Of a DNA stretch of 64,000 bases, positions 662 to 55,745 are shown in pieces. Under the pieces are notes generated by a model. The model had not been told where the DNA came from. It worked only from the letters and a program-made list of their open reading frames with translations, and did no database searches. Position numbers and translations under genes: made by a program. How positions within the stretch are numbered: the stretch's first letter is position 1; every line of letters begins with the position of its first letter. The DNA comes from Patiria miniata (taxonomy: Eukaryota), in contig NW_024037060.1 of the NCBI RefSeq assembly GCF_015706575.1, positions 1,009,983 to 1,073,982 on the forward strand, read 5' to 3'.

Positions 662-925
662 CATGGGCGTCGCGAGGGGGGGGGGGGCAAGGGGGGCACT
701 TGCCCCCCCCCCCCCCCCTGGAAAAGCAAAAAAAAAGATGAAGAAGAAGAAGAAAAAAAAGAGAAAAAAGGAAAATAAAAAGAGGCGCGACGACAAAGTG
801 GTGTAAATTTAATGAGTTGGGGGGGGGGGGGGCAAAATGTCCCTTCCCCCTCTAAAACTGATAAATCGAGAATATGTTGAGAAATTTTTGCCCCCCTCTT
901 GAAAAAATCCTGGCGACGCCCATGA
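662..925. mobile_element. Related MITE (TIR CATGGGCGTCGCGAGG / CCTGGCGACGCCCATG) with poly-G/C + poly-A/AG core
   Basis: inverted termini at ~662-677 and ~910-925; flanking 7-8 bp direct repeat (g/a)TTCAAAT; TIR core GGGCGTNGC shared with 4668-4912 family. Confidence 0.65.
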
Positions 926-1739
926 TTCAAATACAGAGATTATATGACACTGTAAATAGCCATTAACCATGTATATCTCCAAAACATGCATGAAAGGTCA
1001 AGATCCTATAACATGGCGGATGGCGCAAGCAAACATTGACGAAACTAATGCTTAGTTTTATAGTACCACCTGTCTATTTCTGTGCGCTAATGGGATGAAT
1101 TGCAATGAAGGTATTTTCCACTGCGTCCGTGATCTTTGCTGCGTTATGTAAATATGAGGTGATTATGATCGGGAATGAATATCCGTTTGTACTTCGTACT
1201 TTATCCTATCCTATCTCTATGTAGACTGCTGATGTATGTACATGTAATTTTGATTCGTCCAATTCATGTTTTCAATTGTATATAGCCAACTATTTTTTGT
1301 TTAATTGTAACTATACCCCGTAGCATTTAAGATAAACCTTCGAGCGAGATAAGGACATGAATTGCAGCAAATAGGCCTAGCCTTGTCTATTATGGTTGGA
1401 AATACCACGAGAATTTTAACCCTATCAGAATCGAGGTTTTTGGTGGGGGGGGGGGCCGGGGGGGGGGGGGCGCCCCCCCCCATCTTAATTTTCGTATGCA
1501 ACAGCCGATTTTCCTAAAATTTGGCAGGAATGTAGGTTGGCCTATAGTATACACACTACGTCATTAAGGTTGCTTTCGGTGACTGTAAGAGGGCTCTTTA
1601 TTTAGTTTCTTGCCCATTTTGAGACAAAAACAGTATTTTACGCATGCGCAATGGTTTCCCCCGCGTCGTCGGCTTGCAAACAGCGGTAGCAGACGACGCA
1701 CTGAACGATTGTCTGGTTTTCATGTCTTATAGTCGGGTT

Positions 1740-1870
1740 GCATACGGTTGGAATCGTGACCGACTGGTCCAAAGCACCAAACTTGGCAGCATGATAGCCT
1801 GATTCTTATAGCCCCAGAGAAGATATTTAGAAGGGGTGACACCTGAAATTCTTTTGGGAAGAGTGCCTAA
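1740..1870 (-). repeat. ~190-bp dispersed repeat family (copies at 1740-1870 inverted, 2596-2790, 4915-5100, 7562-7747)
   Basis: shared core ..gcaaatt(a/t)ggcac(c/t)cttcccaaaagaatttcagg(t)gtcaccccttcaaaatatcttc(c/t)ctaaggctataacaacatat.tgc.aagtttggtgctttggaccagttggtcacgatctt. Confidence 0.8.
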
Positions 1871-2595
1871 TTTGCATAAAGCGTTATTCCCTGTCATGTA
1901 ATATATCTATTCCCATATTTGGGTAGATTTTTTTATTTTTGAAAAGTATATTTTGGGAATTTACTTACATATCCTTACTTAAATAACATTTTCTAAAGAA
2001 TATCGGAGACTTGAAGATTATAGGACATTATAAAGATCCATTTCCTTTTCCCTCAGATATTATCAAGTAGTTCAAAACCTCAGTATTGATGAACTTCAAA
2101 TTCACAAAGTTACTTAATGACATAGTTATCCTAACAAAAATAAATGGGAAATCATGTGAAAAATTAATCATCTTGATATTTAGCCCACAAAAACAAAAAG
2201 GGGGAAAATAAGGTGTCCGTAAATTGGGCTAAAAATTACTTGAAGCCTGACGTGGAGGACTTGATCAAGCTCCCCGTTTTTGTGTTCTGGGCTAAATATC
2301 ACAATGTTGTTGTCCACATGATTTTCCATGAAGTCTTAATCGAGTTACTATCCCAGTAAGCAACGGGTGAATTTGAAGCTCATCAATACTATTTGGCAAG
2401 ACTACTTGGTTATATCTGGAGACAAGGTTAATGAGCGCAACTTTAGAGTATAATAGTAGACATTTTGAATCGTTACTATGTCCTCATAATTATCCAGTCA
2501 GTCTTAAATGCTTTAGAACATGTTATTGAAGTAAGGATGTGTAATCCACAAAATATACTTTTCAAAAAAAAAAATGTACTCAAATGTCGGAATAA

Positions 2596-2790
2596 ATGTA
2601 TTACACGGTAGGGATGAATGATTTAAGCAAATTTGGCACTCTTCCCACAAGAATTTCAGGGTCACCCCTTCAAAATATCTTCTCTAAGGCTATAACAACA
2701 TATCTGCCAAGTTTGGTGCTTTGGACCAGTTGGTCACGATCTTATCAGAAATTGGGTCTAAGCCACCTGACTATCATGAGGGGAAAAGAA
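2596..2790 (+). repeat. ~190-bp dispersed repeat, copy 2
   Basis: see 1740-1870. Confidence 0.8.
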
Positions 2791-4667
2791 TAGGCAGGAA
2801 AGTCGAAAATACAGACGCACACTTTGACACATGCTTAGCTTTGGAGAGTCCCAGACGGTGTATAATCTGTGCTCGCTCGGTCCAATATTTGAATATAATT
2901 TTGTAAGTTTAGAAGAGAAATCGGTCCTCGGATAGGGCAATCATCACCCAATGAATAGTACATGGAAGCGCACATTATCAGAAACAGTGCATACTTTGGT
3001 GACAGCATTGTCTTGGTTCTCCAAGAAGAAAGCGAGGTAAAAGACAATACATACATTCATAAATCGTAAAACACATTTGCGTTTATACTCACGTAGTATT
3101 AGTATACCGGGCGTAAATGATTTTAATCATAAATGGCATAAAGCTAATAATAATTTACTAAATTTGTAAAGTTTTGATATTGTTTATCAATTTATAATAA
3201 CAAAAAATGGTTCCGGGTTATTTTGAACCGGGTACATGTGCTAGCAATGTAAATGCAGTGCCAGGGAAGTACCGAGCCTAGAGACAACTATATGCCATTA
3301 CAACGCTACATAATTATTTTAACCGATTGTGACCGCTTCTCATTAACCGACGCAAACCGCAGCAGCACAAACCGACAACGTTGTGCCCTACGATCACTGC
3401 GCAAATATCGTTTCAACTGGTGTGGGTCGTTATTCCCTTGAATTTCGGTTTCATCAAAAACATGTGCATGTATTGAGAAAATCAAATCAACAACGCACAC
3501 GCGACTCCTGCAGCACATGTGCATGCATGCGAATAAATAAAGCAAACTGTGGCGAGGCGTTGTGAACGAGATCCCGGTCCCCCTCCTAATTATCTATGCA
3601 TGAGCATGAGCAATATCACCAATGAGTCCGTATTTCATAAAACCTAAATTCATGCTGCACCGGCTGTGGCAGGGATGAACCGTGAGGTGAAGCAGAAGCG
3701 GTAAGGTAAAGGAGATTTAAGTTATCCTCTCGAGTTTGGACATAAAAGGTCGCCTGGTTTTTTTTGCCCCGCCCACCCTCCTCAGCAAGGTTGCTTGTTC
3801 GGACTCTGGTTTCTACGCTCGATTCTTTCTTCCCCATAGGCAGGGTGTGCATGGACTTATAAAAAGCCTATAGGGTCATTTGCTTTTCATGCATATTGGT
3901 TGTTTCCAATAATAAAACGGGTAACACCACTCAAATTCTGTTGAAGTTTCAGCTCAGTGGATATTACACTTTTCGAGAAAACAAAAACAATACACATGAT
4001 CGCGACACACGATTTCGTCAATAGCACTCTTTTTCAAAAGTCAGTTAATATTAACTGATCGTTGGGATTCACCTACAATAAATTTCACGGGGTGTACGGT
4101 ACTAGTCTAAAGTCCAAGACTTAGTAAGCTTGTCGATAATTAGTCGATATTTACTTTTCGGATAAATGCAAATGATATATGCCTTTAACAAACGACATTG
4201 GTAACATACGAGACATTTCGATGTACGGTACTTTATCACGGATAATTATGAGGGGGAAAGTGTGGCTAAAATAAACGGAAATAAGTTTTTATTGTGTTTG
4301 ATGTTTCCCCTTAAATTCTGTTTGTGTCATTACTGACCTCTTTGCGGCTGGTTTTGTATGAGAAAACAAAACTGTAGAAAGGACCAAAGGTGGGTAAAAT
4401 AAACGGAAATAAATTTGGATGTGTTTGATGTTTCCTCTTAAATTCCTTTCCTGTAATGTGACTTATTCCGTTTGTCATGTAACTCCCATCTTGGCTGCTT
4501 TTTTTTTTTTTTTAAGTATTATCGATACATGTGACATGCCTCCCCTCAACATTGAAGTGGCATCATCATCATTGAATTATGTCAACACATACGAGGAAAC
4601 CAAGTGAAAAGAAAATATATGTATGTGCCAACTTGCACAGTTGAGGATAGACCAACTTCATTATGTA

Positions 4668-4912
4668 CAGTGGCGTAGCCAGGGGGGGGGGGGGGGGGGG
4701 GGGGGGGCGACAGCCTCCCCCCCCCCCATGAAAACTTGTCGCCCCCAGTCGCCCCCCCCCCCCCCACTGAGATTTTGAGTTTCTAAAAAAAATATCATTG
4801 ATCTACATGACGCCCCCCCAGGATATGTTCTAGCCCCCCCCCCCCCCCCAGCGCCCCCCCCCCCAGCCCCCCCCCCCCCCCCCCTCATGACAAATTCCTG
4901 GCTACGCCACTG
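4668..4912. mobile_element. hAT-like MITE (TIR CAGTGGCGTAGCCAGG, 8-bp TSD ATTATGTA, poly-G/poly-C core); second copy at 7323-7562 inside duplicated unit
   Basis: cagtggcgtagccagg...cctggctacgccactg terminal inverted repeats flanked on both sides by attatgta; interior is G/C homopolymer runs. Confidence 0.75.
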
Positions 4913-4914
4913 AT

Positions 4915-5100
4915 TATGTATTACACATTAGGGATTAACGATTTATGCAAATTAGGCACCCTTCCCAAAAGAATTTCAGGTGTCACCCCTTCAAAATATC
5001 TTCCCTAAGGCTATAACAACATATTTGCTAAGTTTGGTGCTTTGGACCAGTTGGTCACGATCTTGTCAAATATTGGGTCTAAGCCACCTGACTATTAAAA
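4915..5100 (+). repeat. ~190-bp dispersed repeat, copy 3 (abuts MITE); copy 4 at 7562-7747
   Basis: see 1740-1870. Confidence 0.8.
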
Positions 5101-7322
5101 TGTATCCTTCTCAAACGTAGACCAAGTGAACAAAGTAGACCAAGTGAACAAAGATATAAATTGTCTCTACAGTGTGGTAACGGCGCTAAAAACCTTTTCA
5201 AATAAAAGAAAAATAATAATTAGGACAAAAAACGTACAAAATGAAAAGGAAAAACATCGTTCGCTTTTGAGTTTGGTTTACACATTTGGACAATTTGCCG
5301 GGTTTACCTTAGATCAGCCGTAGTACCATCGGAAAGGATGATAGATTATTTTCATTTTACAGGTGATTTGATGTAAGAAGGAAACCTGTCGCTTATAAAA
5401 ATCGTCATTTTTCGAGTAAACCCATTTTGAAACCTTCGTGCACAAATACACTGGTCCCAGTGCCCTCTAGGATCGTACTTAACTGCTTTTCAGGGGCGGG
5501 AACCAGTCAGTTGTAAATCGTTTCAGTTAAATGTATACATTTCCAACGCGTCGAAAGATTACAAACGGAGCGCCGCGGCGCGTGGCGTGTGGCTAGCCAT
5601 CCAGTGTTTACGGGCCAGATTCCAGGGTCTGTGTACACGTACGTGCACACTAACGTTACATTCAACGAAAAAAACGTATAACGTGAGACCTTACTTTTCT
5701 CATTGAAACGGTTTCCGACTAATTAAATTATATTTATACATCGCACTTCCCGTGGCATCCTTTACCATTTTTCAGTGAAGACAAGGGCAAGATTACCATA
5801 TGCGAAGTTCACTTATTTTCCTCTGTTTTGACTAACAAGCCCCCAGATAGCAATTTCATGTCATCAAAGTCAATTTCAGCAGTGAGAAAATACAAGCATT
5901 TTCTTAGAAAACACTTAGAATTTTTCAGTCCAATCTCATAGGGTTTGTACACAGGTTGTTGAGTGAACTTCGTATATGGAAATCTTTCCAAGACAAGTTT
6001 ACAATTACTCGGCAAAATTGAAAAATTATCCCCTAAACTGTCGCCTGTTTTGAATTTGTGACCCAATACTTTCGTATTACACGACACGGAAAAACAAAAA
6101 CAAAATGCATCAAATACTCTGTTTTTTGCGCTAAGGTTTGCAAAAGTGACTTTGATTGCCTTAAATTGCCTTAAACTGTGGCGAGGCGTTGTGAACGAGA
6201 TCCCGGTCCCCCTCCTAATTATCTATGCACGAGCATGGGCAATATCACCAATGAGTCCGTATTTCATAAAACCTAAATTCATGCTGCACCGGCTGTGGCA
6301 GGGATGAACCGTGAGGTGAAGCAGAAGCGGTAAGGTAAAGGAGATTTAAGTTATCCTCTCGAGTTTGGACATAAAAGGTCGCCTGGTTTTTTTTGCCCCG
6401 CCCACCCTCCTCAGCAAGGTTGCTTGTTCGGACTCTGGTTTCTACGCTCGATTCTTTCTTCCCCATAGGCAGGGTGTGCATGGACTTATAAAAAGCCTAT
6501 AGGGTCATTTGCTTTTCATGCATATTGGTTGTTTCCAATAATAAAACGGGTAACACCACTCAAATTCTGTTGAAGTTTCAGCTCAGTGGATAGTACACTT
6601 TTCGAGAAAACAAAAATAATACACATGATCGCGACACACGATTTCGTCAATAGCACTCTTTTTCAAAAGTCAGTTAATATTAACTGATCGTTGGGATTCA
6701 CCTACAATAAATTTCACGGGGTGTACGGTACTAATCAATAATCCAAGACTTAGTAAGCTTGTCGATAATTAGTCGATATTTACTTTTCGGATAAATGCAA
6801 ATGATATATGCCTTTAACAAACGACATTGGTAACATACGAGACATTTCGATGTACGGTACTTTATCACGGATAATTATGAGGGGGAAAAAAGACATTTGG
6901 AGAGTACCAAGTGTGGCTAAAATAAACGGAAATAAGTTTTTATTGTGTTTGATGTTTCCCCTTAAATTCTGTTTGTGTCATTACTGACCTCTTTGCGGCT
7001 GGTTTTGTATGAGAAAACAAAACTGTAGAAAGGACCAAAGGTGGGTAAAATAAACGGAAATAAATTTGGATGTGTTTGATGTTTCCTCTTAAATTCCTTT
7101 CCTGTAATGTGACTTATTCCGTTTGTCATGTAACTCCCATCTTGGCTGCTTTTTTTTTTTTTTTTTTTAAGTATTATCGATACATGTGACATGCCTCCCC
7201 TCAACATTGAAGTGGCATCATCATCATTGAATTATGTCAACACATACGAGGAAACCAAGTGAAAAGAAAATATCTGTATGTGCCAACTTGCACAGATGAG
7301 GATAGACCAACTTCATTATGTA

Positions 7323-7562
7323 CAGTGGCGTAGCCGGGGGGGGGGGCGTGGGGGCGACAGCCCCCCCCCCCCCCCCCATGAAAACTTGTCGCCCCCAGTC
7401 GCCCCCCCCCCCCCTCCCCCCCACCCAGATTTCGAGTTTCTAAAAAAAATATCATTGATCTACATGACGACCCCCAGGATATGTTCTAGCCCCCCCCCCC
7501 CAGCGGCCCCCCCCAGCCCCCCCCCCCCCCCCCCTCATGACAAATTCCTGGCTACGCCACTG
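7323..7562. mobile_element. hAT-like MITE, copy in tandem unit 2
   Basis: same TIRs and TSD as 4668-4912; homopolymer lengths differ. Confidence 0.75.
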
Positions 7563-9094
7563 ATTATGTATTACACATTAGGGATTAACGATTTATGCAA
7601 ATTAGGCACCCTTCCCAAAAGAATTTCAGGTGTCACCCCTTCAAAATATCTTCCCTAAGGCTATAACAACATATTTGCTAAGTTTGGTGCTTTGGACCAG
7701 CTGGTCACGATCTTGTCAAATATTGGGTCTAAGCCACCTGACTATTAAAATGTATCCTTCTCAAACGTAGACCAAGTGAACAAAGTAGACCAAGTGAACA
7801 AAGATATAAATTGTCTCTACAGTGTGGTAACGGCGCTAAAAACCTTTTCAAATAAAAGAAAAATAATAATTATGGACAAAAAACGTACAAAATGAAAAGG
7901 AAAAACATCATTCGCTTTTGAGTTTGGTTTACACATTTGGACAATTTGCCGGGTTTACCTTAGATCAGCCGTAGTACCATCGGAAAGGATGATAGATTAT
8001 TTTCATTTTACAGGTGATTTGATGTAAGAAGGAAACCTGTCGCTTATAAAAATCGTCATTTTCCATTTTGAAACCTTCGTGCACAAATACACTGGTCCCA
8101 GTGCCCTCTAGGATCGTACTTAACTGCATTTCAGGGGCGGGAACCAGTCAGTTGTAAATCGTTTCAGTTAAATGTATACATTTCCAACGCGTCGAAAGAT
8201 TACAAACGGAGCGCCGCGGCGCGTGGCGTGTGGCTAGCCATCCAGTGTTTACGGGCCAGATTCCAGGGTCTGTGTACACGTACGTGCACACTAACGTTAC
8301 ATTCAACGAAAAAAACGTATAACGTGAGACCTTACTTTTCTCATTGAAACGGTTTCCGACTTAAATAATATTTATACATCGCACTTCCCGTGGCATCCTT
8401 TACCATTTTTCAGTGAAGACAAGGGCAAGATTACCATATGCGAAGTTCACTAATTTTCCTCTGTTTTGACTAACAAGCCCCCAGATAGCAATTTCATGTC
8501 ATCAAAGTCAATTTCAGCAGTGAGAAAATACAAGCATTTTCTTAGAAAACACTTAGAATTTTTCAGTCCAATCTCATAGGGTTTGTACACAGGTTGTTGA
8601 GTGAACTTCGTATATGGAAATCTTTCCAAGAAAAGTTTACAATTACTCGGCAAAATTGAAAAATTGTCCCCTAAACTGTCGCCTGTTTTGAATTTGTGAC
8701 CCAATACTTTCGTACTACACGACACGGAAAAACAAAAACAAATTGCATCAAATACTCTGTTTTTTTGCGCTAAGGTTTGCAAATGTGACTTTGATTGCCT
8801 TAAATTCTTGTCCACGTGGAAAGAAAAAATTATCAAAGTTTGTTTTGTTTGCACCCTCATTTATAAAAAATCAAACTCCGCCCACAAAATGGGCAAGATC
8901 CAGGATGGGTCCCGATCTTAAAATGATTTCTAGCCCATTTTGACCCCACCTGCCAAGGTTCATGCTTTTACCACAAAGTGCACGATTTTGGCCAAAAATG
9001 GACCTAAGCAGCTCCACTATATAACTTAACGTGAAGAGGTTCGCGCGCGCATGCGCATATGACATAAGTCACTATCAGCCACAGCGAAATTGAA

Positions 9095-11225: not shown

Positions 11226-14200
11226 TTAGAGTCTACCCTTTGATTCCCAAAGAGAGAAAATTCACTCCATTGGACCAGACGTTTTAGAGTGAAAATCATT
11301 CAATTAGATCGAGTTTTCACTCACATGTTAATAAAGAACATGTTTTTACAACTTACTAAATTTTCTCACTTACCGTTTCTGGTTGAAATTGTCTTAAAGT
11401 CGTCGACACGAGTACAGCTATGATGAAGTTAGATGTACTTTGGGCTTTAATTCCTTCCAGGTGTAAGACGAATTTCTTGCTTGCGAGGAGAAGAAATTAT
11501 CCTCTCTTTTCAAGGCCGTTAAATTTCCCCGCAAAAACTGCTGGTATTTCTCACCCCTCGGTTTTATTGTACCGCACCCCTTATAGACTCGCGCCCTTAT
11601 ACGATCCTTGTACCACTCATCTGATAACAACCACAATTAATACCAAGGTTTTTTTTTCAGAGATCGTTTGCGCCATATTTCAATGAATCTGTCGGGTCCT
11701 TTTTAGACTTTGGAGGCGGCGATTTTTGAAAATTGGTCCCAAAGTCCGTCACTGAAAGGGCGGGTCCTATGTTGCTAGATCACATGTGGCTGCAGCCGAG
11801 TCCCATCGTGCGCATGTCCAGGTGACGGTGGTGGTGGTGGTTGCTAAGCACATGCGTCTGTTTCCATAGCCAGCAAGGTATGCGTGCGTGCGTGCTCACT
11901 GTCATAATTTCTGACAGCATGTGGTTTTACTGCTGAGAAATAATTATGGTCTGGACCGTGTGCTTTGGAAAACACAGGGTTTATTTGAATGAACTGAAGC
12001 AATGATATTAGGTTTCGGATATTTAGGCGTGTATATCGTCAGAAACGCGTATGTAAAAACTAGCGGAGGTTTTTACTTCGGGAGGTGTTTTGATTTATGG
12101 TGACAAACGAAGGACTTGGTGTGATCCGAAAATCGGCAGGCTAAATGATAGATACTGAGCATTTATTATTTTCCGTCGTTAAAGCTGCAATCTCGTCCGG
12201 TTATTCTTTTTGTCAAAGAATTTGCAAGACTCGGACTAGGGCTATTATATAACTAATAAGCTTACTTTATTTTTAGTCTGAAAATTTGAGGACAATTACA
12301 GTCCAGTTCTGCTGGCACAATGCAGTTTTGTGATTTATCATAGAGCAAGAAACTTCCAAAATTACAGGACACAGACCACTGATCTCTTGTCCATTGCCCT
12401 TATCTTGGTTGTAAACTCTGCTCGGGCTATCGGTGGGATAGACCCATTTATTATGTCTCCTCTTGAATCTCCACTGAACAAATATCATTAATAACCAAAA
12501 TACACAAGAGTAAGTTTATATACATTTCCGATAGATAACCTTCCATTCAATCCCGCTGATTAAAAGCGCATACTTAATCAAATGAACTGTAGGTGTGAGT
12601 GGGAGCGGCCACAAAGATTTGCATTCCTTTGCGTGGTTTATTGGTTGTTCCCTTTTTAAATTTATTTCATGAGATTAGCGGCACCTCCGGTATGACCACA
12701 GCTAAAATGGAGTGGCGCCCACCCCTACTATATGAATTTCCTCTCAATTTTGAATCTTCATTGAAAACTTCGCATAAAAATGACAGTAACATAAAAAACG
12801 TAATTTAAAAAAAAAATTTTTTAACAATAATAACGTCCCTTATAGTCCCCGCCCCCCCCCCCTCCCGTGTCCCGGTATCCCCTCCCCTCCCTCCGCCTTT
12901 GAAACTTTTTCCCAGGATCCCAGGGACATTTTGTGGAGTTTGTGTTTGAGAAACGTTGAGTGTTTTGCCCAAATTGAGGAAAAAGTTCGCAGTGACGCAG
13001 TAATATTGTCTGCTGCATGAGTGGCGGGGGGGGGGGATTCAAGCCTACATTGTTAGGATCAGCAGTGATGGAACAGCAAGGCGGACAGTCGGGGTGTTTT
13101 ACCAATACCGACCTGCAAACTATACACTGTAATAACATCTAGTTCGATTCTAGAAAACAGTTCAACTTGTACCCAGCTGACTACAGCTAGGGTCAGGTGG
13201 TCAGAGGGATAATCCCCCTCCTGAAAGCCAGATCCGCCCCTGGCGAGGTGGAGGGATGGGGATCGAACTATCTGATTCAATGGGGGCGCTGTTCAAAGCG
13301 GGCAATCTATTGTAAATATACGTTCTGAAAATTAAATCTACCACTACCAAGCGGGGGAGGCTATTACTAGGACCTAGTACAACAAGTTTGAACATCTGTT
13401 CCTTGCTCTATGGTTTGAAGTTGCTTGTGCTTTCATTTCCCTAATAATAATAAATAATAGGCGTTACTAGACCTATTATTTTGTAGGACGTGGCTCATCC
13501 GGTGTCATGATAATACGTATTATACTCTACTTGGAAAAAGAGTGATGAGTTTCATCCCAGTTTGGCTATTGCAAGTCTAATTTCTATTCTTATTTTGATT
13601 GTACGTCAGCTAATTGACATAACTAAGGGGTGAGGGGTTTCTGGCCTGTGCTCCCTTGCCCCCCCCCCCCCCCCAACTTGTTTCCGGCTCCATCCATTCA
13701 GCTGATGACGAAAGGACCAATAACAAGTCTAAAAGGCTTCCCTTGTATTTCAAGTCTGACACCATGAAAAAGTTTACGTGAGTTTTAGTTATGTTGTCTT
13801 AGAGAACCAGACCTCTGTTGAAAGTGGGTGGTGCAACCGCCGGCAATGCGGGTCGTTTGGTGGTGCAATACATCGTTGTCTTGGTTTTGTTTTTTACCAA
13901 ATTGCAAGTCAGCAATAAAGAGAATTCATGAGACAGAAGATTCCAGAAGTGATGAGGCTGAGAATGAGATGATGACAGTGTTTGCAATTTGTCGGGTACT
14001 TTTAAGTAGCTAGCTAGGCCAGACATGCCAGATAGAGTGCGGCTGTATCTGTGACTGTGTATCATTTAATCGTCGCTTGTTGCATGCACGAAGCTGAGCT
14101 AGGAAGTACACTGCACTGTCACTAGGAATAGGATTGCTAACGTTCTGTGTAGGTAATTTTGCTTTTTCCCCCCTTCTTATTTTGCTGTGCACTAGTTCGA

Positions 14201-15610: not shown

Positions 15611-18600
15611 GTGAGTCCTCATACAGACAGTTCAGAATGTCACATCTATTTTATAATTCTTAGGCACTCCTTTATGCAGTCATCCTCCGAGAGTTATTAT
15701 GAAGAGCAAATTATCCACCCAACAAATAAAAATTCATTTGAAGTTATTCTTGATGATACCTCAATGGCAAATTACAAAGTACCAAGGTAACAGGGACGGG
15801 AAAAATGCCTCACATTGGACCCTCAATTTATAGAATGGTCCCATACGCACTGTGTATTGGCACTGGACATAATGTAAGTGAATTTATGTTTTTTTACAAT
15901 AAATATAGGTGTATAGAGTGATTTTGATTTGTCATTATTGAGAATATGTTCAATTAAGATATCAATATTTGGGTCAAACTCTCTACAGTTCACCCCACAC
16001 TATGCATTTTTACTCTTGCAGAAAAATTAAGAAATTCCACTATATATTTTTTTGGAGAAAAATACTATTAAGAATGGACAGTGGTAGTCAGCCCACCCCC
16101 CACCCCCCCCCCCAAAAAAATCTGCCCATGAAGCAAGGCTTTTCAAAGACAAATGTATAAGTAATTTGCATGAACTTAGTCATGAGCTTCTTTCAGTATT
16201 TCACTATGTTGCATCATTGGTCACTTTTTCTGATGATGCAGCATTTATTTGCTTATCTGCACGATGAGTCACCTCCTAACCTTACAACAATACAAGCACA
16301 AGTACATGAAGTGTAGCGCTGTGTTTACACCAAGTAACCAGGCTTGGAGAACCATGGGAGAACATACATGTTTGTTTTTATAATACTACATAACATACAT
16401 CAAAAAACAAAACTACCAAATTATTATGGAATACCTCACTTGACTGTAAGTGAATAATAGTCTCAAGCATCCTGTGAAATCACGGCACCTGGTGTGCTGT
16501 CATTTTCAAGAAAAGTGAAATGTTTGTATCTATTTCCAATGATGGTTGGCCAACCATCGTTAAAAAAAAAATGACTTTTTTCAAATACTACCTCCAATTT
16601 ACCAAATTTAGTTACCTGATTATTACCTGCATACCTGATTATTAGGTTTTAATAATAATCCTTCCGTGAAATTCTATGTAGGCTAACTTTGTTTGTTTTT
16701 AACTCATTTCTTGACAGACATCCTTGATCAATCTCGTCAGTTCTTCCCTGGTCAACAATCCCAGCTTCAAAAAGCCAAAGGATGAAACCAGAATAGCTCT
16801 CGTGAAGAATGCAGACTCAGTCATCCAAATAGACCCTGAGTTTTTGCTGAAGGTTTGTGACTTTGGGATGTTGTTTGTTTGTTTGTTTGTTTGCTTGTTT
16901 GTTTTATGGAAGTTGCCCAATGTGCACTGCATTGTGAATAGCCTAAATTCACAACATGTGAAAAATATTGCAAACTGATGATTACAATAAAATAATAAAT
17001 GATGACCCCAAGTTCCATTTAAAAGATCTCACAGATCTGCAACAATGAGTAAATTCTAATACCGGAGTCTGTGACAAAACTAGTCAGTGTCTGATACCAA
17101 GACATTCGCATGGAAAATGAATGTGAAGTTGGGAGACTTGCACACTCGTTTATTCAGTGACAGGTTTTATTTTCCATTTCCATTGTGCACAGGTTGCGTT
17201 GTACACCAGGAAGGATCTGAACATTCGTAGCACGGCCAACTTCCTGTTGGCATTGGCTTCTAACCGTCGGGAATGCCGACCCTACCTGAAGAAGTACTAC
17301 AAGCTGTCCATAGCCCTGCCATCAGATTGGGCCCATGTCGCCGATCTGTACCTTGTAAGCAACACCCCCAGGTTTATTCATAACGCTTCACTACCGTTTT
17401 TTGGCAACTTCCAAGTTAAATTGCTAATTTTCTTGCAAACCTTATTACATGAGATGAGTGCATAAAGTTAAAATACAATGCTTTTGAAAGACTATTCTGA
17501 GTATCAGACTTTCACTTAAAGGGAATATACAACATTTGCAAACATCGAAAAATAAAACTACCAAGTTTTGCGAAATACCTTAATAGGATGTTGGTAAATG
17601 ACAGTCTAAAGCATCCTGTAAAATTATGGCACCTGGTATACTGTCATTTTCAAGAAAAGTGGTATTTTTGTATCAATTTCCAACGCTGATCGGCCGATCA
17701 GCGTTGGAAACAACTGGCTTTTTTTTCAAATACTGGCCCCAATTGACCATTGCACTTGTTTGCAATCGATTACAAACCTATGAACGGGTACGAGCCAGCT
17801 AGACTGGTTCCCTGACCTTACAATTCCCAAATGTATGTAAACTGCTCTGTTTCTTCTTATATGGAGTCAGGGAACCAGACTACAGGAAAATGATCGTTTT
17901 TCTTGGTTTTTATAGCATTTTCGAACCCAAAACCTCCAAAAAGTCAGTGTAACTATATTTGCTTTATATTTCCAACCCCCCAATTCCATCCATTTCTGAA
18001 AATTACAGCAAAAGCAAATGATGTATATTCCCTTTAACAAGAGCCACACGACGAACGTCTGATATATCCTTGCAGGGCAAATTTTTTGCAACTCCGCGTG
18101 CAGCTTATCGGAGTCAACGTTAGAAATTGTGACGTCAGTTCGATCAGACATGTGGACTAAGCTGTTGATTGGTCAATTTGGCTACCATGTATTTGTAGTA
18201 CATCAACAGGTTGCAGAGGACACTCGTGATAGAAGGCGATCAAGACGCGGTGTTCTTTTGCATGATTAAATTCCACTGGTACACATAATCTTGAGACTGT
18301 TTTCATAAAATGTAAACCCCTTTTTTTTTTATGGGATTGTGTGTTTCTATTTTCTGTTGCTTTGTTTTCCTGCAGTCATTTCAAGATAAGGAACTGAGCT
18401 ACAGATCACTACCGTCTGCTCTGAGGAAGGTCATGGTGGCAAAGTTCCCGGACTTCGATACTTATCAACTGGGTAAGTAACCAAAACACACAGGCACTTC
18501 TCGTCTTTTCAAGATCACTCACATTTTTAGATTATTCTTACTGGAAAAACGCTATCTGGATTATCCATATGCTGGATGATTAGCTATTCCAATATTTGAT

Positions 18601-21600: not shown

Positions 21601-24600
21601 GCTTCATGTTGATGAGCCTTTGATTCTAGTCTGTTGTTTACCGTGACTTGGGCTGTCATGTCTCAAGTTGAGTTGAGTTACCAACAAAAACACGACTCAA
21701 GTCAGAATTGAGTGAATTGAGTGACTCGAGGCTTTACAAGTTTGGCTATAATAAAAACATGTTTTTTCAATGTTATGAAAATAAGATTTTTAACAATTTG
21801 TCCCTTTCTGATTAGGGGTTAGAGTAATGCGCAATGTCAAGTATACATGTGTGTAATAAGTGATTTGAAAAACTCGCCGTGTCTATCGACCGTACAGAAA
21901 AACTCAATCATACAACCGTTTCATGACTAACTGTTTGTTTGTTTTTAAATATAGAGAGCTCAAGTACACCAAGGAGTTACTGGTTCGTTACCGCAAGGCA
22001 CTGGACACTGCCGTCAAGATAGCCACACGTCACAACATCAAACCCATCCGGGGTAAAACCTACTTACTCTGTGACATCGGGCCCAAGATGGATATGTATA
22101 CTGGTGGATCTGGAATGGACAAGGTACAGTGTGGTTCGCCTGTGGATGTTTGAAAACTCAGTCAGCCATGGATTCCTCATGACCTTTGAAACGGGGTAAA
22201 AAAGACCCCCCCCCCCCCGGTCAGTTGTGACGACATTTGAGTAGAGTGCCATGGCCTCGTGGTCTGCAGCATTGAATTATATTTCCATATTGTAGAGGGA
22301 TCGCGCATTCTTGACAAAAAAAATGTTAATACAAGACCTGACATGTAGGAGATAACGCGAGTGCATGTAGGGCGTGCAGCCTTCGAAATATGCGCCCAGT
22401 ACGCTCTGAATAGGGTCATTCTATAAATTTGGGGTCCAAAGTGTGACATTTATCCCGTCCCTGTTACCTTGGTACTTTGTAATTTGCCATTCAAGCATCA
22501 TTAAAAGTGACTTCAAATGACTGTTTATTTGTTGGGTAGGTAGTTTGCTATTCATAATCACTCTTGGAGGATGACTGCATTAAAGAGTGCATCAGAATTA
22601 TACAATCATAGATGTCAGATGTAACAGGGACGGGAAAAAAAGTGAACCCCAAATTTAAAGAATGACGCAATAGTCAATCAGCATCGGTTTCGTATTCTGC
22701 ACAGCCAGGGGTTAGTGAAGGAACATACAAACAGCCCATGTAGTTGAGTTTGCTCCTGATGAGTAGCACAAACAATTTGCTCTGCGATATTTTCTTCTCA
22801 AGAGCTTTGGTTACTTCTTGTTTTTCTCCTAGACTAGAGAGAACGGCCTCCTGCTGGGTCTTATGTGTAAACACTCTTGCGAGGAGTGCATCTTGGTCAG
22901 CTATGGGGTCAACGACCAGAAGGTCATTGAACTGGAGAAGGGAACGCTCCTGGACAATGTCAAAAGCATCGTTGAATATGCAAAGGTAATTCAAGACAAA
23001 TAAACACAATATGTGACCGGATTCCACGAAATAGGAGTAATACATTGTTCAAATTGAGTGCCTGTGGCTGCAAATTGTAAAGATGGCGATACAGTTTTCA
23101 TTTTCATTTTTTCGTTTCTTTACAATATACAGGTATATATAGGTAGGTAGGAATATAATTCATGTACACATGCATTCCGGGCCCCTTCCTCCAATAGGAA
23201 TACCAAAATGCATGTGCGCCTCGTCTTTAAGAACGCATGAAGCATGCGCGTGAGCGTCACACCACCGCAGTAAAAGCTTCTATGATGAGATTTGAAGGTT
23301 TGCATGGTGGAAAGATACTAAGACAAGATAAGTTTGCGGTAGCACCATGTGAATAAATCTCTTTTGTGAGTATGTGTGGTTCTGAAAAGAACCGGAGGGA
23401 CTCAACGTTTCGAACAGTATGCTCTGCCCATCGTCAGGAGAATGAGGGATTCCAACGATGATGCGATGATCAGCATTCCAACATCGCATCATTGTTGGAA
23501 TCCCTCATTCTCCTGACGACAGGCAGAGCATACTGTTCGAAACGTTGAGTCCCTCCGGTTCTTTTCAGAACCTCACATACTCAGGAAAGAGATTTATTCA
23601 CATGGTGCTACCGCAAACTTATCTTGTCTTAAAAGCTTCTAATTCTGGTCGCTGGATTCCTCTATACATGTATGTGTAAATCAGACTTGATTGTAAAAAA
23701 ATCGGGAAACTTGCTTAACTCAAACTCCGAATACCTAAAAAATTGTATCCATTCCCTTGAGATTTGACTTGACGAGAGTTTACTGTACTTGTGACTGGAC
23801 TCATGATTGACTTGTTGATGAATTTGACAACAATCAGTAATGCATTAAGCATTGAGTTTTACTTCACAGGCTGCTGATGGTGACATGGAGGACCACTGGA
23901 ATGCCCCGCCCAGCAAGTTAAACATGACCACCTTGTACGAGGCGCTGCGCGACCGCGTCCACATCGACAACCTGATCATTGTCGGGCAGGACTACACGGA
24001 GGACGGGACGGGCTGGAATGAGATGGAGGACTTTGTGGCCAAGTACCGTCAGCTGGTCAACCCCAACCTGATGTATGTCCAGATTGATCTGACCTCCTCT
24101 TATTCCTGGTAAGATTGTCTCTATATTTGCTCTACTATTTTGGTTTCAGACTGGATTTTGGTTTGTTCCCGAAACGCAGCACATATGTTCCCATCGTACT
24201 ATGTCAAAGATCCATGTGACCGCCCGGTTTACTCATGGTCAGCCACCATTGCAGTGTGCCAGCATTTGGTTAGCAACTACGTCGTGTGTTGTGAACCAGA
24301 CAGTAGGGCTTATTTTCACTTAAATATGCTAATACTTAACCAAATGGCAATATGGTCACTACGTGTGCCCTTGAAGGTTTTCATAATCATTTAGTACTCA
24401 ACCCAATAAATGCTTAGCACACTTCACAGGTGTGCCTTAACTTGAGTATATCGCACATGAGGTACGCTCACAATTCCTTCGGTTCGTAGAAGCCGAGTTA
24501 CGAGGCGGATGGAACCAAAAAGTCTCTAAAAGAACCAAAGAGTCAGTGGTTGAGCAGGAAGAAGACCACATGGGCCTTATCACAAATACTCAGACAATTT

Positions 24601-27600
24601 TCACATTGGCGAGTTTGGCCAAAAAGTATTGTTTGAAGGGAAAGGTCACAAAAAAGACACATCATTCGTATTGATCCTAAAAGTATCCTACCAAATCATT
24701 GGGTGCACCACGAACTAACGTATCGTCTGTGGACTTTGTGCACACGATACGTCACTTTGTGGTGTGACTGACGAAATTGTTATAAAAAATCGCTTTCTTG
24801 GATTAAAATCATACTGGCAATAAACACCGCATGAATTATTCCATCTGACTTGCTGTCGTTTAGGAGAAATCAAGAAGTGTAGGTGATATCCAACAAGTCA
24901 GACAATTGACTGACTTAATGTTGAGTACCGTTGACAAAATCGTGTTTTGTGATCAAAAAGTTGTGCATGATTTTTCACTTTTTTCTTGCAAAATGTAATA
25001 TCCACTGATCTGAAACTTTAGCAGGTTCTTCTTTGGATTTTGAAAAGTGATATTATTGGAAATAATTGGAAAAGAAAAGAAAGCCAAAGAAAGCAACTGA
25101 TCTGATATGCCTTTAAACTATATTTGTGATTTTTTTTAGACTTTTTTTTTTAAACCCTGAAGGAAGGAAAAGCCAGCTAAAAAGCCCAGCCACCCAAATG
25201 ACATCAGTGTGACTGGTTACAGCGATAACATCCTGCGATTCATAGCTGAGCGAGGCGACAGCGGCCAACTGAATCACGTGGAGAACATTGACAAGGCCTA
25301 TGGTCTCCGAGAACTTCAGGTATGTTCTTACTTTACATTGACACATATTGAAGTTTTCCATTAAAATGAAGCAATTTCTTTGTTATTCATAAGATGGAGT
25401 TGTTGGATTTTGTTATTCATAAAATGGAATTGTTGGATTTCTTTGTTGTTTCTGAAGTGGAGATTGTACAAACTAACATGATAACTTTTTTGAAACCACT
25501 ACTTTTTTCGGTCGTACATTATTTTTAGTCTGGTTCCCTGACTGATTCCCTGACTTGCTGCTGAAACTTTTGAATGTCCTTGATGTTGACTGATTCGTCC
25601 CCCCCCCCCACACACCCTCCTACACCCCCCTCCTACACCCCCCTCCCTACACCCCCCCCCAAAAAAAAAAAATTAATAAATATATCAATAAATAAAATAA
25701 AACAAATACATACAATTAAAAAAGATTTCCTTTTGCTACAACCTTGTCCAGTTCCGTCTGATTTTGCAAGAACCTGTCATGAATGAAAAAAAAATTGCAC
25801 AATAAATCTACAATCTTGTAAAACTTTAGGCAAGCTAGTGAAATGGTAAGAGATATTTGAGCACAGGGTTTAGCTGAAGTACTCAAGAAACACAGACCCT
25901 TTCACTAGGTTAAAAGACATAGGGTTTAAAGTCTGATTTCTAGATTCTGTCACTCAACGGTGTTTTTTTTCCGTTTGTGTTGTTATTCTACTCAGGTTGC
26001 AGCAATTGGACGTACTGATTCCAACCAAGCATCTGCTGCCACCAGTCCAGAGACCCCACTGCCCATTGCTGCCCCTGTACACAGGTCAGAAAATCTAAGA
26101 ACTCTCTGAGCGATCCCTGTTTGCTATTTCCCAAGTTTGCGACATTGCTTATATTGCTAGCATCATGACTTTAGGGCGTGATCCCTGACTGGTTATGGTG
26201 GCTTTTCAGCGTTTATTCAGTGTGAAAGTTGTCCCTGTATAATCAGTATCCTAGTTGCTTTCTTGCAACCACCTCTTGAGTTCCCTGCAACCTTGTTAAA
26301 GAGAAAATATTTCTCATGGAATTTTGGAAAACTCAGCAAATTTTGTTTTTATGATGTGTAGGGAACCCTTCAAACAATGCACATTGACCGATATAGGTCA
26401 CCACTTTTGTTCATGGTAGGCATGTCAATTTCGTGCGTTAGCACTATGAGAAATGCTCACACGCCAAAGTTGGGCAGGGCATGTAGCCAATCCAGAATGG
26501 CCCAGTGTGTGGTGTTACATGCTATTAAAAAAGATTACAGGGTAAACCAGCCCAAAATCCTGCTTGACGGTGATTCTTTTGTTTGCTTGTTAGATGGCGG
26601 ACGGCTCGCGTGTTCATCTCCTCCACGTTCCGTGACATGCACGGCGAGCGTGACCTGCTGACCCGCTTTGTCTTCCCTGAGTTGCGGGCTCGGGCCAAGA
26701 AGCTCTTCCTCAATGTGTATGAGGTGGATCTGAGATGGGGCGTGACTGAAGAGGAGACGAGGCAAAACAGGTAGGTGGGCCTAAAATGGAAGTATCTGTG
26801 TTCTGCACAGATCGCTTCAGGTTGCTAGTAACTTACAGTTGACTAGAGACCTGGGCTTGATTTTATGGAACTCCATGCATAGATAGCACATTGTTCTTCG
26901 TTACCACCAATAGACCTTTATCATGCTGCCACCATTTCAGTCATGTTTTTTGTATCCAATAACAGTACTGAAGGATAATGTTTTTGTGCAAAAAGGAGCC
27001 AGACTATTTTTCCTTCCAGCCTCGCTTTGGTTACATTGATGGAGACATGGCTGCCTTATGATAATGGTCTATGGGGAAGACAGAGTGCTTGGGCACGCAC
27101 ATGACACATGTCGGCAGGAAGTACGCACACCTGAGTTTATAATTCCAAATGAGTGACAATGATTCAAGAATTGTCATTCCTTTACACCACTAGATAATGG
27201 CAAATTGTGTCAAACTTCTCTTACTTACAGATCGCTGGAGATTTGCCTGACAGAGGTGTCTCGCTGCAACTACTTCATCGGAATCTTGGGGAAGCGTTAC
27301 GGCTTCTGCCCAGAGGCCTACACGGCGCCGGCCACGGAGGAGTTTGATTGGCTGCAGGACTACCCGGCCGGGCGTTCCATCACTGAGCTTGAGATGCAGC
27401 ACGCGGCGCTGTGCGACCCGCAGATGGCTGTGGGAAGGGCGTTCTTCTACTTCAGAAACAGTGATTTTATGGCGTAAGTCATAACTGAAGGTTACTTCCT
27501 GTGCCTCCCAAAAGCACAGCACTGTGTGATATTATTGGTTCATCAAGGAATTAATACAGTGTAACACATTTTTGTGAAAGTACTAATGGGCAAAGTTGAC

Positions 27601-30600
27601 CAAAAAAATTTCGACTCCAGAAAATTCGGATGATTTAACATACAGTGTGCTAGGAATTTGCCTTGAAGAGAACATTTTTCAATGTCAAAGTCGACATTCT
27701 GCATATATGGTCTTAACATCAGTCTCAATGTTTCACGTGGTACCATGCAAACCAAAATGCAGTTCATTTAGAAACCTCTGTTATTATCAAAAAATGATCC
27801 CCCAGGAAAAACATAAAAATCATGAATCGTTTTTCCTTTGTACAAAATAGATACCATTTGAGAAAGTATGCAAAAGAACATTGATATTTTCCCAAGAGAC
27901 ACTACTGGTACCGGTTTTCATATTACCAAGTCTCTCTTCTTAAAAAAAAATTGTTTATCAAAAGTATTTAACACTTTTGCCACCAAATTCTTGGAGTTTA
28001 TAGTTGGAAAGTGGAACTAGTACTTTTATGTCCTTTTTTTGAAAGCCCTGATCACCATCTTCTTTAAGTTTGAGTGACATGATTCAAAGAATTGAACAGA
28101 AACGTCAAGTTACCTTGATTGTTCCCTACAAATCAAGTATTGGTTGACAAGCTAAAACAGACCATGTAGTATCTGGCAAGCTACGTTTTATCTGTGTTTT
28201 TTATTGGTTTGGTGTTTGTCCTTCATTTTTCAGTGAGGTTCCCTCTTCCTGCCAGTCAGCATTCCAAGCTGAGTCAAACGCAGCATCAGAGAAGATAGAG
28301 AATCTCAAGCAGCGAGTGCGATGCAGCGGGCTGGAGGTCTTTGATGGGTAAGATGTCTTCAATTTGTTTTTACAAATGGAACTTCCTTGGCTCCCCCCAA
28401 AAATTATTTTTGTTTCAAAAAGCCAAGGAAAAAATAACATTGGCTTCATTTTCTGTGACTTGCCAAACTGGTTGTCAAATTTTGGTCTACAGTTGTAGAC
28501 TTTTTTACAAATTCAATTTGGATGTAGAAAGCTGTGGTAAACTTGTTTATGTATTTGACATTCTCAAACTCTAGAATTTTGTTTGGATCATTTAAACATC
28601 ACAAACTTGAGTGTGAAGCATTTTTATGATGTATCTTCTTGCAGCAGTTCTGTTGCCAACTTGACATTAGATATTGATAAAACGAATAATAACCTCAAAC
28701 TTTTTTTGAATATTTTTCTCTCATAAATTAGTTTTTTTCCAGCAAATGTCTAAATAAGCTAACAATCACATATGTTGGGAAAGTGGACAAGCCTTCACAG
28801 TAATTCTTCCTGCTAAGATATTCATAAATACCTCATAAAGACTGTCTGCTCCATTACAACATGTATCCCCATATCTCTCTCTTTCCAGATATCCGTGCCG
28901 GTTTGGTGGGGTCGTGGACCACAAACCCGTTACCACCAACTTGGAAGAGATGGGTATGCGCGTCGTCAACAACTTGTGGAACTCATTCGTCAAACATTTT
29001 CCTGAAGAGGTAAACAAGGCCAAACTTTTGTAGAAATATTTCCAATTAAAGAAAACTGCTGATTGTAGCTGATGTTTTCTTTCACTTGTAAATGCCCAAA
29101 CAAAGGCCAAGAACTACTGAAGGTGAGGGTTACAAATTAAAATTAAAAAAAAGAGCAAATAGGAGTCAAAGTGACAGGATATCCTTTCAGATTGCTTAAG
29201 AATTAGCCAGTTTGGTATCTCTATGAAGTAGTCCAGGTCAAAGGTCATTCGGGCTAAAATAGCTTACGGAATGTTACATGTTACGTTATTTTACACAAAT
29301 GCCCGCTCTGGTTGTAATTAACATGCGAGCGTCTTGTGCCCATCTCCCTGCGCCGTCTCTCTGTGCGTTCATGCGCATGGCATATCCTCAAACTTCTCCC
29401 AAATTATACTCACCATATCTTTGTCTTTGAATCATCCAGGAAGCCTTCTTGGACGAGCTGTCACACGAGGGAGCCCTCCATCAGGCCTTCCTGGAGGCCC
29501 ACGTCGCCGGCTTCAGCGGCCGTAAGACCCAGCTGCGGCAGTGCCTGGACCTGATGGACGCCTGCCACAAAGGGCTGATGGTCATCTGCGGAAAGAGCGG
29601 CTGTGGAAAGACTGCCCTCACAGTAAGGAAAAAGAAGAAAGAATAAATGAAGACATTGCAAAAATGCCATTTACCCATTAGCACATGAACTACATTGTAT
29701 GACATTGTATGACATTGTATGACATTGTACTACATTGTATGACATTGTATGACATTGTATGACATTGTATGACATTGTATGACATTGTATGACATTGTAT
29801 GACATTGTACGACATTGTATGACATTGTACGACATTGTATGACATTGTATGACATTGTACTACATTGTATGACATTGTATGACATTGTACTAGATTGTAT
29901 GACATTGTATTACATTGTATTACATTGTATGACATTGTATGACATTGTATTACATTGTATTACATTGCATTACATTGTATTTATTCCCTGATGAATCCAT
30001 AAAACCATACAGTGCTGGGGCGGTTTGGGGCAGTACAGAGAGTAACAGGCTGGATGTTGGGGACAATTCATTTTTTTCAACCAAAGATAGGAATTCACAT
30101 TTGATTTGATGAGTATTTAACAAAACTTTCACGAGCTGTTTAAATGTTTAGCCAACACTAAACAAAGGCTGGCACCAGTTACTGTGCAGTTCCACATAAG
30201 TCGTAAATGTATTCTAATTTCTTGTTGAAGTTTGAAAACACTACCTCCATTGTTTTCCCTTGTGAGTTAGTTTATGATTTATTCCCTTGATGCATATTTG
30301 TTATTTTTTTGTTTTCTTTTCATGTTTTTCCTCCCAGTCCTGCCTGGCCCAGCGCTACAAGAACAAGATATTGGAGTCTGACGGTAACCACGTCTTGGTT
30401 CACTTTGTGGGTGCAGCGGTGGGATCCAGCAACGTCCTGGCCGTGCTGCGACGCCTGTGCCTGGAGCTCAAGAAGCGATTTGCTCTCACTCTCACCATAC
30501 CAGAAGACTTCAAGTGAGTGCTGTGCTCTTTCTGGTATCGTGTTCTAAATTTCAGTGCAAGTAATTCTTGCAAAATTATCCAGCGAAGGTGGTGTTCTCT

Positions 30601-48890: not shown

Positions 48891-50404
48891 ATTAAAGAAG
48901 ATATATAGTGTGTCATGCTTAAAACTTTATTGATGATTTGAAACTTTGAGATTTATGTTCACATAGTAGGTAGGCAACAGTGCCAACGTTTAATTATTGA
49001 GGTATTAAATGGAAAAAAAAATATTGCAAATACTTACTGAGTTTAAAGATAACTCTAAAAGTATCAAATGTTCTGAGTGTGTATCTTGTACCGCATGCTA
49101 TAAGTTTCATGGAAACAAAAATATTCAAGTTTGTATTATTAAGTAGATTATGATATTTTTTTTCTTCAAAATTTGCTTTCCCGAAAGAAAAGAAGTAGTA
49201 TTCTGGGTTTGTTTGGAATAGATTGAAAAATGAGTTTATCTAAAACTGTTGGTAAAGCAAAGAATGTTGGCAATTTTTGAGTCTAATATTTATTGCCAAA
49301 ATGTTCAAACAGCTAACTGTGTACAATGTGAAAATTTATTAAGATCATTTTATCATACACTGTGTAACAAATGCAAGGAATTTCTAATGTAAAAAAGTTT
49401 AGGTAAGAAAGCGCACATTACTTTGTCATAATGCAATGTCAATCAGTTATCTTGGGAATAATGTACAAGATTCCAATATTTTTTGGAGTTTGGGTTTGTT
49501 TCAAGGTTTGTTGTCACAAAATTTTTAATTTTTTTTATTTGATTGGATATAATAGCTAGAATTAAAGAAAAGTGTATTTCAGAGCAGAGAAAATGTGTTT
49601 GGAGTTGAGCGTTTTATACCGCTCCACAAGGTTAATAAATATTACAAATTCTACCAAGATACCTAGATAAAGAACCGTGTTGAATGTAATTTTATCGAGA
49701 TTGTAAGAAAGCACTAACAATTGAGAAATCACTGATCATGTGTTTGGGAATAATGAGTAAACTCGGATTCTCGGTATATTTTAAGAATAGTTAGGTCGTT
49801 GAACAGAATAAGAACCAACCCAAATACGTGATATAATATGTCTTCTGTATGTTAAATACGGTCTCTTTCCTTTTTCTGAATTTCATATTTTTGTGAGGTT
49901 TGTCACAATAGTGTATTAACCCGTTAAGTATTATCATTGTCTGAATAAAAATATTGGAGGGAAGAAACGAAACGCATTTTCAATAAGGTGGTCGTGGGAA
50001 ATATTTTTGTATAATCTTTGTATAATTCTGGCATATTACTTTATAGCTTGTATTTTAGTCTGAAATATTACTTATGAAGTGTAGATGGATATAAGAGATC
50101 GCTATAACAATTTTATTCAAAAGAAACTACTTTTATTTCACTCTGTTGTCTCAGATGATCGCAATGTTGTTGCAATTCTATTAATAAAAAATTGATTAAG
50201 AGCCACTTTTGTCCGAGGTAGCTATTCATTTAGATTTGAGATTTCCTGTCTTGTTGGCAAAAACGTTGAAGTTTTCGAATGTTGTTGAGTGAACACATTT
50301 AAAGTTTCAGCCCTGCGTGTTATTAAATTAAAACAATGAATGCAGTTTACCTTATAAAAAGGTTTATAAATATCAATTATGTTTTAAATTCTATCTTTGG
50401 ATTG

Positions 50405-55571: not shown

Positions 55572-55745
55572 TTTAATAAGCTCTTTGTCAATTATTAACA
55601 AATGCAGGCGCATACAAATCCGGATCTGCAGCCTGTTTAGGCCGGTGCACATTAAGTTTGATCAGCTCATTACGAATATTTGTCCCATTTAGAATAATCG
55701 AACTCTAAATTATTTCAAAATGCGCAGCCTTCGAAGAATACTTTA

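Follow-up and report, generated by a model that had tools for sequence, protein, structure and literature searches.

Probable non-autonomous hAT elements with long G/C runs in a 64-kb stretch of Patiria miniata DNA

We analysed 64 kb of nuclear DNA from the animal Patiria miniata (contig NW_024037060.1; about 40% G+C), and this whole stretch is referred to below as the window. The window contains four short elements, E1 to E4, which carry terminal inverted repeats (TIRs) flanked by 8-bp target site duplications (TSDs) and which very probably are MITEs (miniature inverted-repeat transposable elements) of the hAT superfamily. The whole window was scanned for inverted 14-mers that matched at 12 or more of 14 positions, lay 60-3000 bp apart and were bordered by direct repeats of 8 bp that differed at no more than one position. 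Apart from points within long inverted repeats associated with U2 genes, E1, E2, E3 and E4 were the full yield of this unbiased scan, and 20 shuffled windows gave 0-1 such structures each (mean, 0.15). The four elements of the original prediction were therefore all real, although E2 and E3 stem from the same insertion. The elements and the features that belong to them are the following.

654-661, unstranded: left TSD of E1, GTTCAAAT, in 7/8 agreement with the right copy; read directly and recovered by the scan
662-924, + strand: E1, MITE of 263 bp, with TIRs at 662-677 (CATGGGCGTCGCGAGG) and 909-924 (CATGGGCGTCGCCAGG)
925-932, unstranded: right TSD of E1, ATTCAAAT
3544-8806, unstranded: tandem duplication with two copies of about 2.63 kb, at 3544-6167 and 6173-8806, whose identity is 96.5% when gaps are counted
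4660-4667, unstranded: left TSD of E2, ATTATGTA
4668-4912, + strand: E2, MITE of 245 bp, with perfect 16-bp TIRs, CAGTGGCGTAGCCAGG, at both ends
4913-4920, unstranded: right TSD of E2, ATTATGTA
7323-7562, + strand: E3, MITE of 240 bp, with TIRs as in E2 and the TSD ATTATGTA at 7315-7322 and 7563-7570
13200-13242, + strand: candidate decayed right end of a related element, ending in ATCCCCCTCCTGAAAGCCAGATCCGCCCCTG; weak assignment
55239-55246, unstranded: left TSD of E4, ATTTTAAT
55247-55569, + strand: E4, MITE of 323 bp, with left TIR CAAGGGCGGATCCAGG and right TIR CAAGGGCAGATCTAGA, which agree at 12/14 of the first 14 nt
55570-55577, unstranded: right TSD of E4, ATTTTAAT

The termini of the elements were similar but not identical. 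E2 and E3 start with CAGTG, E4 with CAAGG and E1 with CATGG, and the CAGTG-type termini originally ascribed to the whole family were thus confined to E2 and E3. The TSDs of E2/E3 and E4 were perfect and did not extend to 9 bp; the TSD of E1 agreed at 7/8 positions, and the TTCAAAT given earlier as a duplication matches an 8-bp TSD at 7/8 positions. The predicted core beginning GGGCGT fits only E1 as written, since E2 reads TGGCGT, but the shorter core GGCGT(A/C)GC(C/G)AGG was clearly enriched, with 6 matches in the window versus 0.13 expected. Similarly, the degenerate 16-nt TIR CADKGGCGKMKCSAGG showed 8 matches in the window versus 0.57 expected.

Inside the TIRs, long runs of G or C were present as had been described, the longest being G26 (4682-4707), which follows the left TIR of E2; E2 additionally contains six C runs of 7-18 nt. 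E1 has a sub-terminal palindrome at 676-718 (G12-CAA-G6-CACTTG-C16), followed by a mostly A/G-rich interior and a right sub-terminal part that reads TTTTTGCCCCCC...AAAAAATCCTGG, and the corresponding sub-terminal stretch of E4 is G6-CCAAA-G5-CCATG-C11. The description of the interiors as almost pure G/C homopolymers was overstated: runs of at least 5 nt made up 44% of E2 and 42% of E3, or about half of their interior, and the corresponding figures for E1 and E4 were 22% and 11%. The elements did fold on themselves, as their single strands folded better than dinucleotide shuffles (z = -5.4, -5.5 and -4.9; DNA folding). At 240-323 bp they have no coding capacity, and the open reading frames (ORFs) across E1-E4 are Pro/Gly/Lys homopolymer translations; a Pro/Gly-rich ORF at 7278-7658 crosses E3 and three ORFs cross E4, in line with the spurious Gly/Pro-rich ORFs that had been predicted. 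No Rfam family matched E1-E4. All three insertions were intergenic or intronic and showed no positional pattern.

No further copies were found in the window by hidden Markov models (HMMs) of the ends (nhmmer) or by a relaxed TIR/TSD scan around 15 orphan G/C runs. Two C-rich stretches, 12840-12901 and 13200-13242, have TIR-like ends (CCTCCCTCCGCCTTTG and GCCAGATCCGCCCCTG) and may be decayed right ends of relatives, at a mismatch level that lies within chance expectation. In particular, the stretch at 13200-13242 has 3 mismatches to the TIR pattern, a level at which about 6 chance matches are expected, and neither a partner TIR nor a TSD was found for it.

E2 and E3 occupy the same position in the respective copies of the tandem duplication and have one common TSD, and because of this shared site and TSD they represent a single insertion. 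E3 arose by segmental duplication of E2, without an insertion event of its own, and the window therefore holds three independent insertions. Comparison of the two copies revealed that the flanks of E2 and E3 differ at 24/2384 positions (about 1%), whereas about 16 differing columns and 4 indels were found within the 245-bp MITE, nearly all of them in or beside G/C runs. The run lengths were unequal in 6 of the 7 G/C runs, and E3 has interrupted runs (G11-CGT-G5 and C13-T-C7). Elsewhere in the duplication we observed a 22-bp indel at 4257/6887 and internal sub-repeats of about 128 bp (4257-4318 and 4386-4445). A foldback structure of about 1 kb lies nearby; its arms of about 290 bp, at 1753-2040 and 2466-2740, show 81% complementarity and are separated by about 425 bp. 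Its outer 180 bp recur at 91% identity adjoining E2 (4916-5095) and E3 (7566-7745), and the structure probably represents a different repeat family that received the E2 insertion or lay next to it.

Upon comparison of the TIRs, the identities were 12/16 between E1 and E2, 12/16 between E4 and E2 and 11/16 between E1 and E4, and the interiors of E1, E2 and E4 could not be aligned to one another. E1, E2 and E4 are three equidistant sub-families of one group with the consensus CAnnGGCGnnnCnAGG. E4, which the original prediction had set apart as a separate TIR family, is no more distant from the others than E1.

The combination of TIR and TSD recurred outside the window. The 19-mer CAGTGGCGTAGCCAGGGGG, which comprises the E2 end and part of the G-run, was present in at least 120 metagenome contigs. 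Among the matches listed, to which the following counts of relatives refer, a partner TIR lay within 1.5 kb in 37 contigs, and 22 of these 37 were complete relatives of 168-1341 bp with an 8-bp TSD containing at most one mismatch. An element of E1 type was also found (CATGGGCGTCGG; contig L057), with a length of 189 bp and an 8-bp TSD. At least one contig looks plant-derived, namely L065, which bears a GeBP-like DNA-binding domain, GeBP being a plant family. At the left end, the relatives share a layout consisting of the TIR, G5-14, a short palindromic spacer and C4-10, as shown by 76 of the 106 distinct left ends, and at the right end a layout consisting of a T-run, G(T)C5-11, 4-7 nt and then AAATT(C/T)CTGGCTACGCC(A/C)CTG. 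E1, E2 and E4 all match this asymmetric layout of more than 100 relatives. When the interiors of the window elements were compared with those of 19 metagenome elements by homopolymer-compressed alignment, only weak similarity was found (z of about 2-6 against mononucleotide shuffles), so that homology of the interiors stops at the sub-terminal parts. When the metagenome loci were searched by BLAST with the entire window, no contig of the same species was found, the matches being confined to a fragment of an orthologous gene (L001) and a bare TIR match, and the viral contigs scanned for the TIR gave 0 matches.

In other genomes, ends of this type also form the left terminus of elements that encode hAT transposases, which agrees with the hAT-type MITE reading of the original prediction. 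Contigs L121 and L124 each contain a copy of one and the same element, with flanks that differ between the contigs; the homology between them begins exactly at CAGTGG, and their left terminus is identical to that of E2 over 19 nt. The L121 copy has an ORF of about 848 aa, whose ATG lies 194 bp inside the element end, with the domains DUF4371 (E = 1e-37) and Dimer_Tnp_hAT (31 bits versus a cut-off of 21.4). A protein nearly identical to it (P0013) carries PF14291, PF27073 (RNase-H-like) and PF05699, and homologues that bear a name, which are about 30% identical, are annotated as 'zinc finger MYM-type protein 1-like' or 'TTF-type domain' proteins. The transposase of L122 (P0014) is 53% identical and is accompanied by a diverged form of the E2 end; about 700 bp upstream of its ORF we found CAGTGACGGAACCAGG-G8-CAC-G7-CACTG-C7, which is arranged in the same way as E1's left end. 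In a further contig (L044) the TIR is followed by the remnant of a hAT C-terminal domain. All transposases found inside ends of this type were hAT, and the four contigs that contain them represent three different elements. The L121 frame has in-frame TGA codons at 761-763 and 2549-2551; L124 is split at the first and open through the second, and these codons could mean that the frame has decayed, that an intron went unrecognised or that TGA has been reassigned in the host. We also observed that the transposase contigs L121 (2880-3200), L122, L123 and L124 all end in a purine-rich (GGGAGAAAAAA)n-like repeat 3' of the ORF. GA-rich parallels are present in the interior of E1 (726-783) and near the right end of the MITEs L108 and L115, and the lineage may have such a tract as a common 3' feature. 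These DUF4371 hAT transposons (L121/L124, L122 and L123) resemble the window elements in their left ends and in a GA tract 3' of the ORF that recalls the A/G interior of E1; in contrast to the non-coding window elements of 240-323 bp, they are coding, about 3 kb or longer and located in other genomes.

Elements of this kind have been described previously. The Pegasus element of Anopheles gambiae, reportedly described by Besansky and co-workers in 1996, is said to be a small TIR element with an 8-bp TSD, and by this description it would resemble the elements of the window. Silkworm MITEs with unspecific 8-bp TSDs were named 'Pegasus-like' by Han et al. (2010; PMC2997013). Among them, BmMITE-13 has the TIR CAAGGGCGGATCCAG, an 8-bp TSD and a length of 263 bp, BmMITE-14 and BmMITE-16 have the TIR CAGTGGCGGATT and BmMITE-15 has the TIR CAGTGGCGTACCTA, the general Pegasus-like forms being CAAGGGCGGATCCAG and CAGTGGCG(G/T)A... 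(PMC2997013). The TIR of BmMITE-13 is identical to the left TIR of E4 at 15/15 positions, and that of BmMITE-15 agrees with the E2 TIR at 12/14. Compared by TIR, TSD and size, BmMITE-13 to -16 are similar to the window elements in having an 8-bp TSD of no fixed sequence and a length of 263-431 bp; they differ in coming from another animal and in having 55-65% A+T, as opposed to 68% G+C in E2/E3. Judged from these termini, the window elements very probably belong to the group called 'Pegasus-like' in the silkworm, whose ends have the form CA(nn)GGCG(nnn)C(n)AGG. A literature search on the exact TIR strings returned, beyond the silkworm paper, primer coincidences only. 'hAT-Pegasus' already serves as a RepeatMasker class label for transposable elements (PMC8730325). 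The silkworm TIR match and the use of this label indicate that the kind is already known, and the sub-families of the window are new at most as members of a known group.

The G/C runs of the window elements were unusually long. In the relatives, the G-run after the TIR was 5-6 nt in 90 of 120 cases and reached a maximum of 14 nt, compared with 26, 12 and 11 nt in the window, and the longest G/C run per complete relative was 5-11 nt (n = 22; both among the matches listed). Within the window, 18 of the 33 G/C runs of at least 7 nt and 15 of the 26 runs of at least 10 nt fell within the elements, which hold about 60% of all bases that belong to long G/C tracts there. The elements thus account for about 55-60% of the G/C tracts that they had been proposed to explain, and the rest lies outside them. 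Eleven G/C runs of at least 10 nt (10-16 nt) lie outside the elements, versus 0.01 expected from base composition. A cluster of orphan runs at 1445-1481 (G11-CC-G13-CG-C9) resembles the sub-terminal palindrome of the MITEs, but neither a TIR nor a TSD could be recognised there; the cluster could represent a fragment that has decayed or, alternatively, an independent microsatellite. Neither end-profile HMMs nor relaxed TIR/TSD scans tied the orphan runs, including this cluster, to the MITE family.

On the basis of the extreme run lengths, the run differences between E2 and E3 and the eleven long runs outside the elements, we infer that ancestral G/C runs of typically 5-10 nt were lengthened here to 11-26 nt, most likely via replication slippage. 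The G+C content of 68% in E2/E3 follows from this expansion. The simplest account is that the genome tolerates or promotes the growth of G/C mononucleotide runs and that the short built-in runs of the MITEs seeded it. The orphan runs point to a genome-wide tendency towards long G/C runs, and it is more likely that this tendency explains the runs of the MITEs than the reverse. The runs resemble mononucleotide (G)n/(C)n microsatellites in their lengths of 10-26 nt, in varying between recent paralogues and in the eleven cases outside the elements; they differ from them in that the runs of the window MITEs were seeded at fixed sites by conserved sub-terminal transposon motifs.

As evident from these comparisons, E1, E2/E3 and E4 are, with high probability, non-autonomous hAT MITEs whose runs were expanded by slippage and which go back to three insertions, E3 having been added by duplication. 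Their movement would have required a hAT transposase acting in trans and recognising the 16-bp TIRs together with sub-terminal sequence. An excised element would then have been re-inserted at a staggered 8-bp cut, which, according to the known mechanism of the family, would give the 8-bp duplications. After its insertion, E2 was copied with 2.6 kb of flanking DNA to give E3. The TIRs of hAT elements are short (about 10-25 bp) and start with YARNG, and the 16-bp TIRs starting CAGTG (E2/E3) and CAAGG (E4) fit this form. An 8-bp TSD alone cannot tell hAT from P or Merlin elements, and the CATGG start of E1 is atypical of hAT, both of which would suit MITEs of one of these other superfamilies. However, the TIRs are 16 bp long and start with CAG or CAA, and the only transposases found inside such ends, in four contigs and three elements, have the hAT set of DUF4371, RNase-H-like and dimerisation domains, and we consider an origin from P or Merlin scarcely credible.

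Several observations weigh against the reading as slippage-expanded hAT MITEs. E1 has a T at the R position of YARNG and departs from the hAT form. The hAT TSD consensus is nTnnnnAn for Ac and nnnTAnnn for Buster; the former fits 2 of the 3 window TSDs, and the 11 perfect TSDs from the window and the relatives showed no clear consensus. No clean empty site was found among the window paralogues: those of the repeat flanking E2 (4916-5095), at 2596-2774 and 1753-1892, are free of the MITE, but their homology breaks off at the insertion point and does not resume upstream. The right end was recovered for none of the transposase-bearing relatives (L121-L124), where it was missed because the contigs stop in the GA-rich repeat, and consequently none of the autonomous elements was obtained complete, with its two TIRs and a TSD; nor did tblastn with the L121 transposase reveal an autonomous hAT copy in the 64-kb window. 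Because the pattern used in the metagenome search demanded five or more G after the TIR, the comparison set is biased towards bearers of a G-run. Finally, assembly error may inflate both the homopolymer expansion and the differences between E2 and E3. Carried further, this last point becomes the explanation that the homopolymer lengths are largely a sequencing or assembly artefact and that the MITEs are real, with true runs as short as in the relatives. The runs of 5-14 nt in the relatives, among the matches listed, versus up to 26 nt in the window would agree with it, as would the near confinement of the E2/E3 differences to the runs, which is the pattern expected of homopolymer miscalling. 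In contrast, the interrupted runs of E3 look like genuine sequence rather than miscalling. Moreover, given the eleven runs of 10-16 nt in unrelated unique sequence, such an artefact would need to be general, and genuine mononucleotide microsatellites would account for these runs equally well. We regard the artefact as unlikely.

The G/C palindromic structure might alternatively be a unit that the host has recruited and that selection maintains, acting in regulation, as a G-quadruplex or i-motif, or as a small-RNA hairpin. The G-run/palindrome/C-run arrangement beside the left TIR, which 76 of the 106 distinct left ends share and which spans many genomes, would be in keeping with such a role, as would the folding of the strands, and the minus strand of E2 at 4834-4884, as read from the sequence, contains G18, G11 and G16 spaced 2-4 nt apart, a textbook G-quadruplex motif. 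However, the palindrome is kept beside the TIR in the autonomous elements L121 and L122, which suits a cis-element of the transposon and not a host role. Furthermore, E1, E2 and E4 have unrelated interiors, Rfam gave no match, run lengths are unstable between E2 and E3, and the three insertions lack a positional pattern, all of which makes host recruitment very improbable. A related idea, which we hold to be doubtful, is that the left G-run/palindrome/C-run is a structure-forming cis-element needed by the transposase and that its expansion here created G-quadruplex/i-motif hotspots that destabilise neighbouring DNA.

The rest of the window contains genes and repeats of other kinds. Exons of a large NACHT/WD40 gene (TEP1/NWD-like) extend over 27200-45300 on the + strand. 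They include a DUF4062-type N-terminal exon at 27205-27477, whose homologues bear PF13271 and in one case the name 'telomerase protein component 1'. A helical exon resembling APAF1_C is located at 34508-34912, and the WD40 exons lie at 36.9-45.3 kb. The WD40 and DUF4062-type exons have metagenome protein matches at 63-75% identity, and L001 is a fragment of the orthologous NACHT/WD40 gene of a related species. Three full-length U2 small nuclear RNA genes (116-122 bits) are located at 50404-50595 (-), 51816-52008 (-) and 53379-53571 (+), within repeats of about 350 bp that are 92% identical, two direct and one inverted. Minisatellite arrays occupy 29683-29981 (period of about 10 bp, with a repeat-peptide ORF), 32556-33015 and 41440-42200. 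A histone 3' stem-loop match at 23353-23398 (-) has no obvious histone ORF (at least 70 aa) upstream on its strand, and tRNA-like matches lie at 31713-31785 (-) and 48500-48572 (-), the first with an odd anticodon according to ARAGORN; these matches may be copies resembling short interspersed elements or pseudogenes. Other repeat families are represented by the dispersed inverted repeat pairs 15642-15837 and 22417-22615 (86%) and 48278-48462 and 61699-61882 (89%).

Our understanding of MITEs is left unchanged by these elements. In annotation, the elements should be masked, the Pro/Gly-rich ORFs across them should be treated as pseudo-ORFs, and E2 and E3 should not be counted as two transpositions. 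The E2/E3 pair provides an internal gauge of the change of G/C runs relative to substitution, with 6 of 7 runs altered versus about 1% of the flanking positions. If the palindrome is indeed needed by the transposase, its conservation from plant- to animal-associated genomes would be explained by the requirement for a hairpin or cruciform, and if expanded runs do act as hotspots, the 2.6-kb tandem duplication around E2/E3 would be a candidate example. The 19-nt hAT end and the adjoining G/C palindrome, which are nearly unchanged in many unrelated eukaryotic contigs, form a handy probe for this lineage and a candidate cis-element for transposase binding.

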